Part shown: positions 2,201 to 56,514 of the stretch, in pieces | Layout: every line of letters starts with the position of its first letter | Numbering within the stretch: the stretch's first letter is position 1 | DNA from: Acidobacteriota bacterium | Lineage (GTDB): Bacteria; Acidobacteriota; Terriglobia; Versatilivoradales; Versatilivoraceae | Direction: 5' to 3' | Length of the DNA: 64,000 nt | Assembly (NCBI GenBank): GCA_028875575.1 | Contig: JAPPDF010000080.1 | Coordinates: 93,940-157,939, forward strand | Position numbers and translations under genes: made by a program | Notes under the pieces: model-generated | What the model was told of the DNA's origin: nothing | The model's input: the letters and a program-made list of their open reading frames with translations, nothing else | Databases searched by the model: none

Positions 2201-4372
2201 ATGATGTCTTCTCGACTCTGCCATCGTGTCTTCATCCGCCCCGTAGCCTTCTGGCTGATCTTGAAATTGATGGCTCCGGCTTCTGCGTCCGGCTCGCCAC
2301 AGAGGCCGCCGATCGATCCCGATTCAGCCAAGGAATCGCAGCCATCCCCACCCTTTACCGTCAGAGTGCCGGTGAACACCGTGTTGGTGAACGTCACTGT
2401 CACCGACAAAGCCGGGAAGCCGGTCACAGATCTGACTATCGATGACTTCACGCTTTACGAAGACGACAAACGTCAAGAGATTCAAAGCTTCGAGCTGGAG
2501 TCCGGCCGGCCGATCGTCGGTCCGGAAGCGGGGCATTCAGCCAGCGACCAGGCTGGAGGGCAAACTCCGCGGGTGCGATCTCCAGAGGACATCCAGGGTG
2601 AGCCAACCCGCCTCATCAGTTGCTTCATTGACGACCTGACTGCGCACACTCCCAGGTACTATGCCTGGACCGTCTCTGCGCTGAAAAAATTCGTCGCAGA
2701 AGAAATGGGGCCTCATGATCGGGTGGGCATTTTCTCGGCCTCCGGGAACGTCCGAATACCCTTTACCAACGACCGCAAGCAATTGCAGGACCGGATTGAC
2801 GATCTAGTACCAGGGAATCTGCAACTGTCCCGTCCTCTCCTGCACAGAGAGTTTGGATTTTCAGTCATCAGGCGCATCCGGGCGGCTATTCGTAGGCTCC
2901 TGGCAAGTCTGGATCAGCATCTTCTCTTCCTGCGGCATGTCAGGGCGAACAAGTCATTGATCCTTCTGTCCCAAGGATTTGTTCCAGGGCCGGCAATGCG
3001 ATGGAGGCTGGATCGGTTGATCGACCAGGCCCTGCGATCCCGCGTGACCCTCAACACCGTCGACATGAAGGGCCTTCACACCGCGAACCTGGGCCGATAC
3101 CGAGTCCTCTTGGACCGCTACCTGGAACAGCTGGCCGTGGACACCGGGGGCATCTATTTTCGTGACAGCAACGATCTCTTCGAGGGCCTCAGACAGATCC
3201 ACAACGCCCGGTCCTTCTACTATGCGCTCTCCTACACTGCCCCCGATCCGGAGCCCAGCGGCAAATATCACAGGATCAAGGTGGAAGTGGACCGGCCCGG
3301 CCTGACACTCGGACACCGCAAGGGCTACTTTGCGCCCCGGGAAAAACCGTCCCTTGAGAACAGCAAGAACAAGGATCTTCAGCTCGCCCTCGAAGCACCG
3401 GTCGATTTCAACCAGATTCCGGTGCAATTGGACTATGAGTCTTCTCGGCTCAACGAGGATCGCTATCGCTTGAGCGTGTTGACCCACGTCAAGATCGAGG
3501 GGGTGCAATTTCTTCATCAGGAAGGGAAACACCGGAATCTGCTTCATCTGGTCACAATGGTTTACGACCAGAACGACGAGCACGTGGAAGGTTCCGAGCA
3601 GAAGGTGGAACTCAATCTAAGCGAGTCCAGCTATCTCACCATGCTCGATCACGGATTCACTTCCAAAACGGACGTGGAACTTCCTGCCGGCCAGTACAGG
3701 ATCAAGTCCATAGTCCGAGAAGGCAATCAGGCCAGGATGGGATCACTTGAAGAGACGGTCAAGCTTCCCATCCCGGAGAGGGAGGCAAGCCCCCCGGGCC
3801 CAATGGCAAAAGCAGAAGTCGTGGAGACGGCCAGGCCATCCGTTCCGGAGAGCGGAGCGGGAGCGAGTTCCGCCCAGGCAGACTTTGCAGAAGAAGAACT
3901 CGTTCCTTCCCCTTTCCCGGATGGCCTGGGAGGCGGTAATCTGGTGCTGAGCCAACAGCTCATTCCACTGGCTGATCTGAGCGGCGAACTGCGGCAAAGC
4001 CTGTTGGAGGACAGCGACTCGCTGATCTTCAAGGATATCCTGATTCTTCTTCCGATGGATGATCAGATCGACCGCAATTACCCGGTCACGATCTGTTACA
4101 GGCTTTACAACATCAACTATCCCGTTGAGAGCGATGGGATGACGGCTCAGATCCAACTCGCCGATGAAAGCGGCCGGGGCAGCCGATTCCCCCCGGTTCG
4201 TTTAGGGAAAGGCAGAACCCAGTCCCGGAGATCCGGAACTGTCGATGTGGGCTTTAACCTCTCCTTCAAAGACGTGGAGCCCGGCAGATACAAGCTGACT
4301 TTGTTGACGCGGGCCCCGGCAGCCGGCCGGCAAGCAGTAAGTTTCGAAACCACCATCATGGTCGTGGAGTAG
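2201..4372 (+). CDS. VWA domain-containing protein with VWFA-related Acidobacterial-type N-terminal domain, secreted
   Basis: ORF 2135..4372. ATG-ATG at 2201 precedes a signal-like segment (VAFWLILKLMAPASASG). PFTVRVPVNTVLVNVTVTDKAGKPVTDLTIDDFTLYEDDKRQEIQSFE fits the Acidobacterial VWFA-related domain pattern. A VWA-like core follows (LISCFIDDLT...DRVGIFSASGNVRIPFTND). Confidence 0.7.
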   Translation: MMSSRLCHRVFIRPVAFWLILKLMAPASASGSPQRPPIDPDSAKESQPSPPFTVRVPVNTVLVNVTVTDKAGKPVTDLTIDDFTLYEDDKRQEIQSFELESGRPIVGPEAGHSASDQAGGQTPRVRSPEDIQGEPTRLISCFIDDLTAHTPRYYAWTVSALKKFVAEEMGPHDRVGIFSASGNVRIPFTNDRKQLQDRIDDLVPGNLQLSRPLLHREFGFSVIRRIRAAIRRLLASLDQHLLFLRHVRANKSLILLSQGFVPGPAMRWRLDRLIDQALRSRVTLNTVDMKGLHTANLGRYRVLLDRYLEQLAVDTGGIYFRDSNDLFEGLRQIHNARSFYYALSYTAPDPEPSGKYHRIKVEVDRPGLTLGHRKGYFAPREKPSLENSKNKDLQLALEAPVDFNQIPVQLDYESSRLNEDRYRLSVLTHVKIEGVQFLHQEGKHRNLLHLVTMVYDQNDEHVEGSEQKVELNLSESSYLTMLDHGFTSKTDVELPAGQYRIKSIVREGNQARMGSLEETVKLPIPEREASPPGPMAKAEVVETARPSVPESGAGASSAQADFAEEELVPSPFPDGLGGGNLVLSQQLIPLADLSGELRQSLLEDSDSLIFKDILILLPMDDQIDRNYPVTICYRLYNINYPVESDGMTAQIQLADESGRGSRFPPVRLGKGRTQSRRSGTVDVGFNLSFKDVEPGRYKLTLLTRAPAAGRQAVSFETTIMVVE

Positions 4373-17047: not shown

Positions 17048-17398
17048 ACTGTCTCACCGCCGATCGGCCCCGCCGGCCGGTGAGGGCCGAACCCCTGCTC
17101 CGGCCCTGTCCTGGTGTTCTACCTCAGAAACAGGGTTGCCATCTTTGGGAGCGCAACGGCGCCGGATTCCAGGAGCGACGAGGAGCCAATGCTCATTCAT
17201 TGCGAGGAGGAGCGACGACGAAGACGGTGCCGTTCCGCCCGAACCCGGAGGGCCGATGGAGGTCCCCGGGAGGGAGAGCAGAATGGCGACGGTTTCGCTG
17301 AAACGTAACGGGCCACTACTAGAGACCGTTTCGCGGTGGAACCTCCATCGGAGATGGTAATCCTATTTCTGAGACAGGACACCAGGGAGTTGACTGGG

Positions 17399-23882: not shown

Positions 23883-24040
23883 GGGATTTCCTTTCCTGCG
23901 GGCAGCTTGAGGATTCCTGCCCTTCTTGCGAGATGGCTGCTTACAGGTTGCAATTATATGCCAGGCGCGCAGTTTGACGGCTGATCGATGATGAAAGCGA
24001 ACCACGAACGGCCCAGACGTCGCGGAATGAAGCCCCACGG

Positions 24041-24236
24041 GAGCGCGGGCGTCCCGCCCGCATGCACTCCCGTTGCCTGCCGCTCAGTTTCCCCGCGATG
24101 GGGCACCCGGGCACCCTGCCGGCGGGAACGGCAGGGGATGGACCGAAGCAGAGTCCTGGCGCCGTTGCCGTTCGAGCCGGGTGGAGGAGATGGGCCAAGC
24201 TGTGCCAGGACTTGTGCGGGCGGGACGCCCGCGCTC
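24041..24236. repeat. Perfect 22-bp inverted repeat pair flanking 152 bp
   Basis: GAGCGCGGGCGTCCCGCCCGCA (24041-24062) and its exact reverse complement TGCGGGCGGGACGCCCGCGCTC (24215-24236). Each arm contains the 17-bp near-palindrome GCGGGCG-TCC-CGCCCGC. Confidence 0.85.
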
Positions 24237-24477
24237 CCGGGGGGACCCTCCTCCCATCACTCTTGCTGCTTGAGGGGGCACGCGCCATCTTGCCGGGCCA
24301 AAGTCCTGCCGGTCGGATCATCTGAGAGCGAAACAGCTTTGTTTCAGGCAAGACACACCTTCGCCAATCGGGGACGAAACGGTGTATCCTTTCCGGTAAT
24401 CTACCAACCAGGACGGGATCGGATTTCGTTCGATGGCGGGCCGCCAGTGAAGAGGCGGCCAGGGAGGATGGGTCAAC

Positions 24478-33564: not shown

Positions 33565-33754
33565 TTCCTTTCCTCGGGCAGTGTCGTGGGTTAGGGGAGA
33601 GCTGCGAAGCTGCGGTCGACGTGGGTTACCCGGCGAAACGCCACCTACAAGACATCCTTATAGAGCAGCGCAGCTGCGGCCTCGTGTAGCCCCGGGCGGC
33701 AGCCCGGGGTCGTATGGGTCCCGCACCAACCTAGCCGCGAATGCGGCGAATAGG
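33565..33754. repeat. REP-like hairpin unit, copy 1
   Basis: CAGTGTCGTGGGTTAGGGGAGAGCTGCGAAGCTGCGG ... GTAGCCCCGGG-CGGCAG-CCCGGGGTCGT ... GCCGCGAATGCGGCG. Compared with copy 2 it contains an internal ~65-nt extra segment that repeats the GAGCAGCGCAGCTGCGGC motif. Confidence 0.7.
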
Positions 33755-53423: not shown

Positions 53424-53498
<75 letters not shown>

Positions 53499-53620: not shown

Positions 53621-55147
53621 TCAGGTAAAGACCGGCTCTGCCAGCTTGGACAACAGAATGGAGGATGCATTGTGCACGTCGGCGTGCAGTGAATTGCCGT
53701 GGGCGTCCATGGTGACGATGGCCGGCAGGTCCTTGACCCGCAGGTGCCACATGGCTTCGGGGATGCCGAACTCCAGCAGGTGGACGTCCACCACCTCCTC
53801 GATGCAGCGGGAGTAATACTGGGCTGCCCCGCCGATGGCGTTCAGGTAGACGGCGCCCGATGCCTTGAGCCCCGCCAGGGTCCTGGCCCCCATGCCTCCC
53901 TTGCCCATCACGGCACGAATGCCGAACCGCTCGATGATCTCCGCCTGGTAGGGTTCCTCGCGAATGCTGGTGGTCGGCCCGGCCGCAGTGATCCGGTAGT
54001 GGCCGTTGTCTTTCAGAACCACCGGGCCGCAGTGGTAGAGCACGCTTCCCTGCAGCTTCACCGGCGAATCGTTCTTCATCAGATAGGTGTGGACGGCGTC
54101 GCGGCCGGTGTAGATCTCGCCGTTGATCAGGACCACGTCGCCCATTTTGAGCCCGCGCACCTTTTCATCGGAGATGGGAGCCTCCAGGCGGACCTCCCTG
54201 CCCGTTTGCGGAAATCCTTCGCCGGCGGCCATGGGAACGGCGGGTTGGTCGTCGCGGTAGAGCCAGCGCTTCAGAGCCCCGGTCCCTGCGTCCAGAATGA
54301 CCCCCAGCCGCCGGAAGGCCCAGCAATCGTAGGCCACCGACACAAAAAAGCAGGCCGGCAGGCGGTTGAGGACACCCACCTTGCAGCCGATCAGCGTCAC
54401 CTGCCCCCCGAAGCCCATGGTTCCGATCCCCAGGGTGTTGCCGGCCTTCATGATGTAGTCCTCCAGCGCAGCCAGTTGAGGGTTGGGATTGGTGTCGTCC
54501 AGGGTCCGGAAGAGCTGTTCCTTGGCGTGAGTGTATCCGGAGGTGCGGTCGCCTCCGATACAGACGCCTAGCGCTCCCGCGCTGCACCCCTGTCCCTGGG
54601 CCTGCCAGACGGCATGCAGGATGCACTTGCGAACCCCGTCCAGGGTCCGGTCGGCTCTCCCCAGGTGAGGCAGCTCGCAGGGGACGGAGTACTGGATGTT
54701 CTTGTTTTCGCAACCTCCTCCCTTGAGGATCAGCTTGATCTCGATCTCTTCCGGGTTCTCCCACTGCTCGAAATGGACGATGGGGGTGCCGGCGCCCAGA
54801 TTGTCGCCGCTGTTCTTGCCCGTCAGCGAATCCACCGAGTTGGGGCGGAGCTTGCCCCTCCGGGTGGCCTCGGCAATGGCCTGGCGGAGGTCCCGCTGCA
54901 GGGCCAGTTGGTTGACGCCCACCGGGGTCTTGATCTTGAAGGTAGGCATCCCGGTATCCTGGCAAATGGGGCCCTCGTCCTCGGAAGCCATGTCGATGTT
55001 GGTGGCGATGACGTTGAGGGCTTGGGAAGCCTGAGTGGAGGGGGTCTCGCATCGCAGGCCGTCGGCCATGGCCCGCCGCACGTCCGGAGGAAGGTTGGTG
55101 GAGGTCTCGGTGATGAGTGCGAGCATACTCTCTTGAAACAAGGACAT
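53621..55147 (-). CDS. Class I (Fe-S) fumarate hydratase / L(+)-tartrate dehydratase, fused alpha-beta
   Basis: ATG at 55147 after AAGGAG. ICQDTGMP, KGGGCEN and C-terminal GKGGM motifs are typical of class I fumarase/TtdAB-type hydrolyases. Confidence 0.85.
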   Translation of the reverse strand: MSLFQESMLALITETSTNLPPDVRRAMADGLRCETPSTQASQALNVIATNIDMASEDEGPICQDTGMPTFKIKTPVGVNQLALQRDLRQAIAEATRRGKLRPNSVDSLTGKNSGDNLGAGTPIVHFEQWENPEEIEIKLILKGGGCENKNIQYSVPCELPHLGRADRTLDGVRKCILHAVWQAQGQGCSAGALGVCIGGDRTSGYTHAKEQLFRTLDDTNPNPQLAALEDYIMKAGNTLGIGTMGFGGQVTLIGCKVGVLNRLPACFFVSVAYDCWAFRRLGVILDAGTGALKRWLYRDDQPAVPMAAGEGFPQTGREVRLEAPISDEKVRGLKMGDVVLINGEIYTGRDAVHTYLMKNDSPVKLQGSVLYHCGPVVLKDNGHYRITAAGPTTSIREEPYQAEIIERFGIRAVMGKGGMGARTLAGLKASGAVYLNAIGGAAQYYSRCIEEVVDVHLLEFGIPEAMWHLRVKDLPAIVTMDAHGNSLHADVHNASSILLSKLAEPVFT

Positions 55148-55330
55148 GATCACTCCTTGAAAGCCGGATCCGGAATCGAAAATCGCCGGGAGCGGGAGCC
55201 CCCTGGGGGTATCCTCCAAATTATAGCCGAGTTGCCTTCCCCTCGGGCAAGAGCCCCCATGCAAGGGCGAAGCCCACAGTCGAGCCGGAAGCGGGCAAAT
55301 GCGAAGTCTCGCCGTTCACAGAAAAAATTA

Positions 55331-55484
55331 ACATCGATGCACAGGATATACAGGATTTTTTCTGACAGTCCGCCGTCCTGTATTCCTGGAAATCGGCAAA
55401 CCCCCACGCGATCATCGCCAGCGTCGGCTTCCCGTGCAGCAGCGTCTCGTCCTGGTTATCCTGTCCATCCTGTATATCCATGTC
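55331..55484. mobile_element. Word-array element C1 (9-nt word arms), MITE-like
   Basis: ACATCGAT GCACAGGAT ATACAGGAT ... GTCCTGGTT ATCCTGTCC ATCCTGTAT ATCCATGT. The core is homologous to C2. Flanked by A/T-rich DNA (GAAAAAATTA | ... | CCTTTTTTGTTTTTTTATCT). Confidence 0.7.
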
Positions 55485-55502
55485 CTTTTTTGTTTTTTTA
55501 TC

Positions 55503-55656
55503 TACATGGATGCACAGGATATACAGGATTTTTGCGAAAGTCCGTTGTCCGTTTTCCCGGAACTTCCGCAAGCCGGTTCCGGATCATCGCCCGAGCCGTG
55601 TTCCGGTGCATGAACCTTTCGTCCTGTGTATCCTGTGCATCCTGTGCATCGATGTT
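55503..55656. mobile_element. Word-array element C2 (9-nt word arms), MITE-like, tandem to C1
   Basis: ACATGGAT GCACAGGAT ATACAGGAT ... GTCCTGTGT ATCCTGTGC ATCCTGTGC ATCGATGT. The outer end CCTGTGCATCGATGT is the exact reverse complement of the C1 start ACATCGATGCACAGG. Confidence 0.7.
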
Positions 55657-55738
55657 CATAAGAATTCATCGATTCCCCGACGCCCACCAGTCACTGCTGA
55701 CATTGAACCTCAGACAGGGCACGCTCGCGGTCACGGCC

Positions 55739-55747
55739 TGCTATAAT
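55739..55747 (+). promoter_or_regulatory. Extended -10 promoter element (TGcTATAAT) for the SDR gene; near-leaderless transcript
   Basis: TG-C-TATAAT at 55739-55747, only 14 nt before the ATG at 55762. There is no SD between them and no good -35. Confidence 0.4.
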
Positions 55748-55761
55748 CGACGGGTTTCGCC

Positions 55762-56514
55762 ATGTCCAAACCCAAACTGCTCATCACCGGCATCAACGGT
55801 CTCATTGGAAGGGTCCTGCGAGACCCTTTGAGTGATTCCTTCGAGGTCTACGGGCTGGATCTCACGCCGCCGTTTTCCGACCGGGTCCTCCAGGCCGATA
55901 TCGCCGACGCCCGCCAGGTGTCGCAGGCTCTCGACAAGCTGGCGGCGGTCCGATACGTCGTGCATCTGGCGGCCCAGATCGCCGTCGATACCGCTTGGGA
56001 GCCTGTGCTCCGGGTGAACATCCAGGGGACCCGCAACCTCTACGAGGCCGCCCGGGTGTCGGGGGTCAAACGGGTGGTCTTCGCCAGCTCGAACCACGTC
56101 ACCGGCGCCTACGAAGGCTTCGCGCCCAACCTGAATCTCCACCGGCAGGCGGAACCGGTTCCCATCACGGTGAGCCACCCCATGCGCCCGGACAGCGACT
56201 ACGGCGTCAGCAAGGCCTTCGGCGAGATTCTGGCCCGCTACTACTGTGCCCGTTGGGGAATGGAATCGATCTGCATCAGGATCGGATCGGTGCGCCGGGA
56301 CGACGATCCCACCACCGATCCCAGGTTTCTGCGCACCTGGCTGAGCCACCGCGACCTGGTCCACCTGGTGGAGTGCTGTCTGAGCGCCAATGTCACCTAT
56401 GGCGTCTACTACGGCATATCCAACAACAAGGGAGCCTTCTGGGATCTTTCCAATGCCCGGGCCGAGCTGGGCTATGCCCCCCGGGACGACGCCTCGCGGC
56501 GCATTACCGGATAG
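55762..56514 (+). CDS. NAD-dependent epimerase/dehydratase-fold SDR, uronate dehydrogenase-like
   Basis: LLITGINGLIG, VVFASSNHVTGAYEG and RPDSDYGVSKAFGEILARYY...IRIGSV resemble the Udh-type pattern (VFASSNH...RPD..YGVSK.FGE.LAR.Y...RIGS). Confidence 0.65.
   Translation: MSKPKLLITGINGLIGRVLRDPLSDSFEVYGLDLTPPFSDRVLQADIADARQVSQALDKLAAVRYVVHLAAQIAVDTAWEPVLRVNIQGTRNLYEAARVSGVKRVVFASSNHVTGAYEGFAPNLNLHRQAEPVPITVSHPMRPDSDYGVSKAFGEILARYYCARWGMESICIRIGSVRRDDDPTTDPRFLRTWLSHRDLVHLVECCLSANVTYGVYYGISNNKGAFWDLSNARAELGYAPRDDASRRITG

Follow-up and report, generated by a model that had tools for sequence, protein, structure and literature searches.

Miniature inverted-repeat transposable elements (MITEs) derived from insertion sequences, of which the Correia elements of Neisseria and the IS630-derived elements are generally known examples, are about 150 bp long, carry inverted ends of about 26 nt, reside at A/T-rich intergenic sites in many copies with differing flanks, vary in presence among relatives, and descend from a longer, gene-bearing ancestor through a common internal deletion. 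Other systems that invite comparison are the repetitive extragenic palindromes (REPs), scattered as inverted doublets (REPINs) and associated with the gene of a tyrosine transposase (RAYT), and selfish genes for small PD-(D/E)XK nucleases. Here we describe two short repeats, C1 and C2, in a 64,000-nt stretch of contig JAPPDF010000080.1 (hereinafter the window, to which all bare coordinates refer) from a sponge-associated acidobacterium of the class Terriglobia with relatives near Candidatus Versatilivorator. The two repeats share all the listed features of IS-derived MITEs and are probably separately inserted copies of a ~152-bp family that derives from a ~470-bp parent carrying a nuclease gene and that may be moved by a nuclease acting in trans. 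The biology of the locus is ordinary; the novelty lies in the descent of the elements from a nuclease gene, which a first-pass annotation, made from the letters of the window, had missed when it correctly described the pair as MITE-like: both arms and core are the remains of such a gene. The gene in question is a clear member of the GxxExxY family (TIGR04256, PF13366 PDDEXK_3; E-values from 1e-42 to 1e-44), which is listed as functionally uncharacterised and for which mixed clades and multiple transfers have been noted (PMC3424549).

C1 (55331-55483, minus strand, 153 nt) and C2 (55504-55655, minus strand, 152 nt) lie in the same orientation in the place where they were first annotated, separated by a T-rich spacer of 20 nt (55484-55503, CCTTTTTTGTTTTTTTATCT); the copy length of about 154 bp reported initially was roughly right, the end at 55656 and the spacer length of 19 nt were not. 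Inverted arms bound each copy, beginning with the tip ACATSGAT and continuing in 9-bp units NNACAGGAT. The left arm on the plus strand has two such units after the tip (26 nt), and the right arm has a further, degenerate one, NNNCAGGAC, in third place (35 nt); over these 26-35 nt the arms are 76-90% complementary. The arms had been described as asymmetric, with two 9-mers on one side and four on the other; the asymmetry is real, and the count becomes three against four if the tip is included and two against three otherwise. The outer ends of the pair are exact reverse complements (C1 start ACATCGATGCACAGG, C2 end CCTGTGCATCGATGT) and so are the inner ends (ATCCATGT and ACATGGAT), both as originally claimed, and the cores noticed as homologous are 70% identical in an ungapped alignment of 127 nt (family D1). 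Matches to GCACAGGATATACAGGAT with at most three mismatches number four in the window, against 0.01 expected, and those to a two-unit pattern number five, against 0.02 expected; all of them fall within the C1/C2 locus.

The meaning of this anatomy becomes apparent on the minus strand. C1 starts there with an ATG inside its gene-proximal end array (55449-55483; ACATGGAT AT ACAGGAT GG ACAGGAT AAC CAGGAC), which encodes M-D-I-Q-D-G-Q-D-N-Q-D, and the reading (MDIQDGQDNQDETLLHGKPTLAMIAWGFAD...) represents what is left of the N-terminal part of a GxxExxY nuclease. The array is followed by the remnant of nuclease codons ~12-30 (55392-55448, ETLLHGKPTLAMIAWGFAD), identified by alignments and BLASTP, by a segment past the deletion junction of the family that equals the region after the stop codon of the intact element (55357-55391), and by the distal end array of tip and two units, inverted with respect to the proximal one (55331-55356). 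C2 belongs to the same family and to another sublineage. Its start codon is mutated to ATC (tip ACATCGAT), its proximal array (55621-55655) is ACATCGAT GC ACAGGAT GC ACAGGAT ACA CAGGAC, the remnant of codons ~12-30 (55564-55620, ERFMHRNTARAMIRNRLAE; overall reading IDAQDAQDTQDERFMHRNTARAMIRNRLAE...) has decayed more strongly than that of C1, and the distal array of tip and two units (55504-55529) is 96% identical to the distal array of C1. Thus, ATG is retained in C1 and replaced by ATC in C2, and in both copies the ACATSGAT(NNACAGGAT)n arrays at the two ends, inverted to each other, persist. The C1 and C2 peptides, in which only a remnant of about 30 codons of the gene is left, matched nothing in Pfam or NCBIfam. 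The two copies are shorter than 500 bp, have inverted ends, lack a gene for a mobilising enzyme, have a longer, gene-bearing counterpart with matching ends, belong to a multi-copy family and are absent in relatives, and accordingly they pass the tests for MITEs other than target duplication; they do not themselves encode a PF13366/TIGR04256 protein, being derivatives of units that do.

The parent is a unit of ~470 bp that consists of a 5' array with the start codon, a single PD-(D/E)XK gene, and an inverted array after the stop codon. Read from the strand on which the 35-nt arm comes first, the tip holds the ATG and the array (ACATGGAT, then 9-bp units NNACAGGAT) reads M-D-(x-Q-D)n. In a Planctomycetia locus (L119), this end runs into an intact frame of 136 aa that matches PF13366 PDDEXK_3 (E = 1.6e-42) and TIGR04256 GxxExxY (E = 4.3e-44), and the unit closes with the inverted array past the stop codon, for a total of 464 bp. 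The same intact layout was found in Opitutales (L115; 463 bp from ACATGG to CCATGT) and, for a third time, in a sponge metagenome (L143, 2999-3470; 472-474 bp), where it encodes P0241, an intact acidobacterial protein of 140 aa (MDAQDAQDNQDGRLLHEKLTGSIIGCAFEV...; PF13366, E = 7e-42) from a sponge data set other than that of the window. P0241 was retrieved with the read-through of a 329-bp deletion intermediate (L080), its start ATC written as M, as the query. A Latescibacterota locus (L023) has the 5' array alone, and in Anaerolineae (L071) the gene lies between two mini-elements of 58-59 nt. In L143, the stretch between gspE and gspF, two type II secretion genes, holds three deleted copies and an intact one, all head to tail, and their junctions resemble the C1-C2 junction (distal array, A-rich spacer, proximal array); the reverse complement of the C1-C2 spacer, AGATAAAAAAACAAAAAAGG, likewise resembles the spacer AGAAAAAAACACAAAGA between the units of this array, which may be suggestive at most in sequence of such low complexity. 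A cultured bacterium, Pirellulaceae bacterium SH467 (CP197412; L131, 400-3000), has one intact unit and at least four internally deleted ones in tandem with shared flanks, and could serve as an experimental system.

The descent of C1 and C2 from such a unit can be followed along the sequence. C1 shares 17 of 33 aligned residues with P0241 (BLASTP, E = 2e-8). Over the first ~103 nt, C1 agrees with the 5' end of the intact unit in L143 at 73 of 103 positions and C2 at 64 of 103, after which both continue directly with the ~35 nt found past the stop codon. Intermediates of deletion are available as well (L080 with 329 bp, P0243, P0244, P0247, P0253 and P0264), and in L080 CGGATGTC[C/G]AGGA stands on both sides of the part that is missing from the short form. 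The 152-bp family is thus the product of a deletion between two short direct repeats, CGGATGTC[C/G]AGGA, which spared the arrays at both ends, some 30 codons of the gene and the stretch downstream of its stop codon. We recovered 16 aligned members of this family, and the junction CGGATGTC[C/G]AGGA is common to most of them, in different loci and genomes, the exception being L119_4159_4298, another deletion derivative. Therefore, the deletion happened once and the short form then multiplied, which argues against decay of full-length genes in place.

The elements are spread far beyond the window. The 26-nt end is present in at least 120 loci from at least 11 phyla in a genome collection of 596 Gb, in which the end pattern ACATSGATNNACAGGATNNACAGGAT, with 22 specified bases, is expected to match by chance about 0.1 times according to our own estimate from information content. 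Phyla were named from the record titles, and the records come from Chloroflexota (Dehalococcoidia, SAR202, Anaerolineae), Acidobacteriota, Latescibacterota, Verrucomicrobiota (Opitutales, Pedosphaera, Kiritimatiellae), Planctomycetota, Gammaproteobacteria, Burkholderiaceae, Nitrospirae, Gemmatimonadales, Hydrogenedentes, Sumerlaeota and Desulfobacteraceae. Many of these are chromosome-level records and many represent sponge symbionts, the others coming from lakes, groundwater and soil. The ends occur in pairs: among 64 pairs, the 62 that are shorter than 600 bp range from 58 to ~520 bp, with peaks at ~60-70 and ~152 bp, and have diverse flanks, so that the further genomic copies on which the first-pass annotation had made its interpretation depend do exist. 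Words from the element ends reach, in sponge metagenomes, ~30-90 times the depth of those from the unique flanks, and contigs break there; the element thus explains the repeat that interrupts short-read contigs in the sponge metagenomes examined. Among viral contigs, only five have the end, in every case within mini-elements that lack the gene, and phages were accordingly rejected as the vector; contigs classed as viral in IMG/VR (L126 and L128) have several mini-elements and no GxxExxY gene.

Comparison with orthologous loci, also proposed in the first pass, indicates that C1 and C2 are insertions and not part of an ancient, conserved regulatory region. The gene order, with a divergently transcribed fumarase and dehydrogenase and the same downstream genes, is kept in three relatives. 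In two of these (L123 and L124, with dehydrogenases 82 and 78% identical to that of the window), the gap between the divergent genes is 277 and 276 bp, respectively, and the element is missing from the whole of each 8.7-kb locus. The alignment of the orthologs conserves ~200 nt beside the fumarase gene and ~45 nt beside the dehydrogenase gene, TATAAT boxes included. Because the orthologous gaps of 277 and 276 bp lack the element, C1 and C2 were, on the evidence of these alignments, inserted after the split from relatives with 78-82% identical dehydrogenases. In the third and closest relative (L122, dehydrogenase 90% identical), the gap is 1091 bp long and, instead of C1 and C2, has other short inverted-repeat elements (MITEs): in the region 2909-4001 of this locus, one repeat with inverted ends CCCGCATTTCTCACC directly adjoins the dehydrogenase gene at its start, and there is also an array of 9-mers CCTTCGTGN. 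The gap is thus apparently a hot spot of small insertions. Contigs with ~4-7% mismatches from several sponge data sets represent related strains that keep both copies.

The juxtaposition of the two copies, annotated initially as tandem, does not reflect a duplication. The 5' core of C1 is shared at 84% identity with a copy in Versatilivorator sp. (L037) and that of C2 at 86% with a copy in another Terriglobia genome (L058, 3605-3755), whereas the two 5' cores are only 67% identical to each other. Because C1 and C2 fall into different sublineages, this pattern indicates two insertions. Clustering of this kind is typical of the family.

The nuclease gene itself supplies the link between protein and DNA ends. 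Among the best 120 homologues retrieved with the core domain alone, less its leader, as query, which come from many phyla, 84 have a leader MDxQD and 63 have MDxQDxQD; of the 126 residues at x, 119 can be encoded by an NNA codon. This bias is accounted for by the conserved DNA unit NNACAGGAT and would not be predicted by a constraint at the protein level. The same units recur untranslated at the distal end, and the 9-bp period keeps any number of them in frame. The disordered M-D-(x-Q-D)n leader is thus a by-product of a DNA signal, and the odd M-D-x-Q-D-x-Q-D N-termini of annotated proteins can be explained as translated DNA signals, those of the MNADERR type less firmly. In three mini-elements inspected by eye, the variable NN positions of the units are mostly non-complementary between the arms, which points to probable protein-binding sites and not to a hairpin. 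Selection for a hairpin was rejected on the same observation, the pairing of the arms notwithstanding. DnaA boxes were rejected by inspection and general knowledge: 9-mers such as TTATCCTGT share TTATCC with the box TTATCCACA, and the last three bases differ.

The putative catalytic residues E41 (in the GxxExxY motif), D80, E90 and K92 are invariant in 37 homologues. The structure model (predicted local distance difference test score of 87) has a disordered leader (residues 1-13), and the predicted fold matches Cas4 SSO0001, MGME1, lambda exonuclease and archaeal Hjc resolvases with TM-scores of 0.4-0.5; a sequence search found no solved structure for the nuclease. From residue conservation and the model, the nuclease looks functional. 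A role as a defence or phage protein family was rejected, there being no match in PADLOC or PHROGs. The family is large, with 27,210 clusters at 50% identity (E ≤ 1e-3), and in the literature searched we found no account of GxxExxY as an inverted-repeat-bounded or mobile unit, of a repeat-encoded leader, or of MITE derivatives. Our results tie this uncharacterised GxxExxY/PF13366 family to a particular architecture, with iterated inverted end arrays, a start codon inside them, and MITE offspring. A GxxExxY gene from a distant clade, with an MNADERR leader (L144, 793-1222), is bounded by a 30-nt inverted repeat of 10-nt units GCAGATGAAC, with the ATG again inside the array; this element lies between an AGGAG ribosome-binding site and the ATG of flhA, so that the nuclease gene is now behind the ribosome-binding site of the host gene. 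End repeats that differ with the protein clade would be the expected look of a cognate pair of protein and site.

How the elements move can be approached through their flanks. Those of the 62 elements shorter than 600 bp have the consensus W-W-T-T-A / element / T-A-A-W-W, which fits the AT-targeted insertion suggested in the first pass, and the three 20-nt flanks of C1 and C2 are A/T-rich, as described there, with GC contents of 35, 20 and 30% compared to ~63% for the window. Our best guess, inferred from the above, is that the movement step depends on a nuclease supplied in trans: a GxxExxY nuclease made by an intact copy elsewhere would bind the repeated units in the arms of short forms like C1 and C2 and cut at the ends, and host repair or replication would then complete the move. 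A further proposal, which we consider possible and put forward tentatively, is that the GxxExxY nuclease itself is the mobilising enzyme of an unrecognised class of autonomous elements of ~420-470 bp. In that case, a lone PD-(D/E)XK domain of ~120 aa would recognise clade-specific iterated 9-10-bp units at both ends and make the breaks, host repair or replication finishing the move, and the elements would have spread over a dozen or more phyla, seeding large MITE families that include the family of C1 and C2. If true, more than 27,000 protein clusters annotated as unknown would gain a function and, if the nuclease does move the units, they would represent unusually small autonomous elements with a mechanism not yet described; units of ~470 bp would be smaller than any insertion sequence known to us.

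Several observations weigh against movement by the nuclease, or against movement as such. To our knowledge, PD-(D/E)XK enzymes are DNA hydrolases for which no joining of strands is known, and we know of no precedent for a lone PD-(D/E)XK nuclease acting as a transposase. Among the 62 elements, no direct repeat of 2-9 bp, as a target duplication would leave, exceeded chance at any offset, and comparison with shuffles revealed no direct or inverted co-variation between the flanks, only the symmetric consensus; the palindromic TTA/TAA consensus could hide a duplication of TA or TTAA. There is no intact GxxExxY gene in the window. No recent pair of filled and empty sites was found in the sponge metagenomes and one metatranscriptome, nor a form skipping the elements that could be attributed to the locus, the contigs breaking at the repeats, and among the fetched loci all junction-spanning matches to empty sites were artefacts of tandem arrays. 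Clade-specific repeats are documented at the DNA level by the single locus L144. In a planctomycete subfamily, the homology reaches ~30 nt upstream and ~18 nt downstream of the arrays. Finally, elements often form tandem arrays that include shared flanks, as in L131 and in L135-L142, which represent one locus in eight metagenomes with a tandem duplicate of the gene and its flanks and with deletions between short direct repeats; some of the multiplication is therefore local duplication followed by deletion in place, not transposition.

The alternative that survives best, and that we nevertheless regard as unlikely, holds that an unrelated transposase encoded elsewhere, of the IS630/Tc1-mariner type with a TA target or piggyBac-like with a TTAA target, mobilises the elements and that the GxxExxY gene is mere cargo. 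The TTA/TAA flank consensus is compatible with either target, PD-(D/E)XK nucleases are not known to perform strand transfer, and iterated subterminal sites in unequal numbers recall the ends of Tn7- and Mu-type elements. Yet there is no TA or TTAA co-variation between the flanks, and no element with the same ends that bears a DDE transposase or another gene was found in the 144 loci fetched. Of the longer pairs with the same ends, that of L072 (1177 bp) has no relevant gene and that of L118 (522 bp) only repeat-like frames, and both were rejected; the pair of L052 (3811 bp) was left out of this search. Most homologues, from different phyla, have their start codon within the end array, and the distant GxxExxY clade has end repeats of its own, which fits a cognate pair better than cargo. 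A gene for a Mu/Tn7-like transposase does adjoin GxxExxY copies in two loci (L133 and L134), but that transposon has its own ends, with TTCTAATTGTCGCGGG sites, and interrupts a GxxExxY copy. As seen in the GxxExxY cluster concerned (L133, 1997-3414; L134, 1-1300), it encodes an 801-aa protein with PF22483, its ends carry repeated TTCTAATTGTCGCGGG sites, and one of the ends abuts a truncated GxxExxY gene.

It is less probable still that the host has taken over the pair, as an insulator or terminator, as a small RNA, or as a micro-protein gene originating from the 50-codon frame of C1. Folding gives each copy a long terminal stem (-61.4 and -67.6 kcal/mol; z of -4.8 and -6.8), the arrangement is preserved in the related strains with ~4-7% mismatches, and element-like sequence occurs among metatranscriptome contigs. 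But the stems follow trivially from the inverted ends, the RNA contigs are not assignable to the C1/C2 locus, and the relatives manage without the elements. No Rfam family matches at 55331-55655, the two Rfam matches of the window lying elsewhere, and a known RNA family was rejected on these grounds; so was a micro-protein gene, given that C2 and about half of the family have ATC in place of ATG, that the ends of the frames vary, and that no Pfam or NCBIfam model fits.

Least credible of all is that C1 and C2 are the decayed remains of two tandem full nuclease genes that were whittled down in place by slippage deletions, a process for which the tandem duplicate of L135-L142 and the array of one intact and at least four deleted copies in L131 provide examples: the junction and layout of C1 and C2 recur in most of the 16 members elsewhere, so that the deletion predates their arrival, and the two copies lack shared flanks and belong to different sublineages.

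We therefore return to two separate insertions of a short form of the nuclease unit, and ask what these mean at the locus. The gap between the class I fumarate hydratase gene (53621-55147, minus strand; 508 aa as called) and the divergent gene of an NAD-dependent epimerase/dehydratase of the short-chain dehydrogenase/reductase (SDR) family (55762-56514, plus strand) is 614 bp (55148-55761), of which C1, spacer and C2 take up 325 bp or 53%, in agreement with the statement that the pair fills most of it. They occupy the unconserved middle of the gap between two conserved -10 boxes, both TATAAT: that of the fumarase gene (55220-55225, minus strand) is 105 bp and that of the dehydrogenase gene (55742-55747, plus strand) 87 bp away from the elements. 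Since both boxes lie outside the elements, and a strict sigma-70 scan of 55100-55800, elements included, detected no promoter-like site, the supply or disruption of promoters envisaged in the first pass finds no support, and a promoter carried by the element was rejected. C1 and C2 are most likely passive passengers at this locus, acting at most as strong stem-loops in read-through RNA. The local meaning is thus modest, with two passenger insertions that widen a divergent promoter region and spare its -10 boxes.

The window and the loci compared with it contain further repeats. A second, unrelated MITE-like element at 24033-24244 (212 bp, GC-rich) has 30-nt inverted ends CCCCACGGGAGCGCGGGCGTCCCGCCCGCA that are 97% complementary; copies that are 81-85% identical adjoin 9-mer elements in L080, L040, L035, L048 and L055, and one copy sits in the orthologous fumarase/dehydrogenase gap of L122. 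An intergenic stretch of ~260 nt at 17126-17385, 85% identical to a region of Versatilivorator sp. (L111, 2539-2797), may be a dispersed repeat or a conserved non-coding element. The motif GGATCATCTGAGAGCGAAACAGC at 24316-24340 resembles part of a ~130-nt block (...GCGGATCATTCGAGAGTGAAACAAC...) that is conserved upstream of many Terriglobia 9-mer ends (L010, L016, L035, L085, L112 and others) and has no Rfam match. Further short arrays of iterated units, namely inverted pairs of NNCACAGAG in L036 (2195-2330), CACGGAT-type arrays in L083, and CACGAAT-type arrays in the Terriglobia loci L016, L035, L111 and L112, hint at more families of a like kind. Of known genes for RNA, the window has an Acido-Lenti-1 RNA (33664-33709, minus strand; 42.2 bits), which fits an acidobacterial host, and a tRNA gene (53427-53498, minus strand).

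Despite the general likeness to IS-derived MITEs, C1 and C2 depart from these in several respects. Their parent has no DDE, serine, tyrosine or HUH transposase, its sole gene being that of a PD-(D/E)XK nuclease of 130-140 aa, the 9-bp end units are iterated and unequal in number between the sides, the gene has its start inside the end, and a target duplication was not detectable. With regard to MITEs of the IS630/Tc1-mariner group in particular, the flanks of C1 and C2 are compatible with TA without being diagnostic. Selfish genes for small PD-(D/E)XK nucleases, such as I-Ssp6803I and TnsA of Tn7, resemble the present case in that a small nuclease is linked to mobile DNA and could plausibly make the breaks from which movement begins. 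Homing endonucleases, however, are generally known to target one cognate allele and have neither inverted repeats nor MITE offspring, and TnsA works only together with the DDE transposase TnsB, whereas here there is no partner gene and copies are found at many unrelated sites. In architecture, REPIN-RAYT systems come close, with a small single gene between inverted short repeats and a repeat that is scattered as inverted doublets; the mini-elements of 58-70 nt, and the nuclease gene of L071 between two of them, recall the RAYT gene between REPINs. The enzyme, in contrast, is a PF13366 PD-(D/E)XK nuclease and not a Y1 (HUH) protein similar to those of IS200/IS605, with which the fold search agrees, the repeat is an array of 9-mers with non-pairing variable positions and not a hairpin, and the ends are shared across many phyla, whereas REPs are, as is generally known, specific to lineages.

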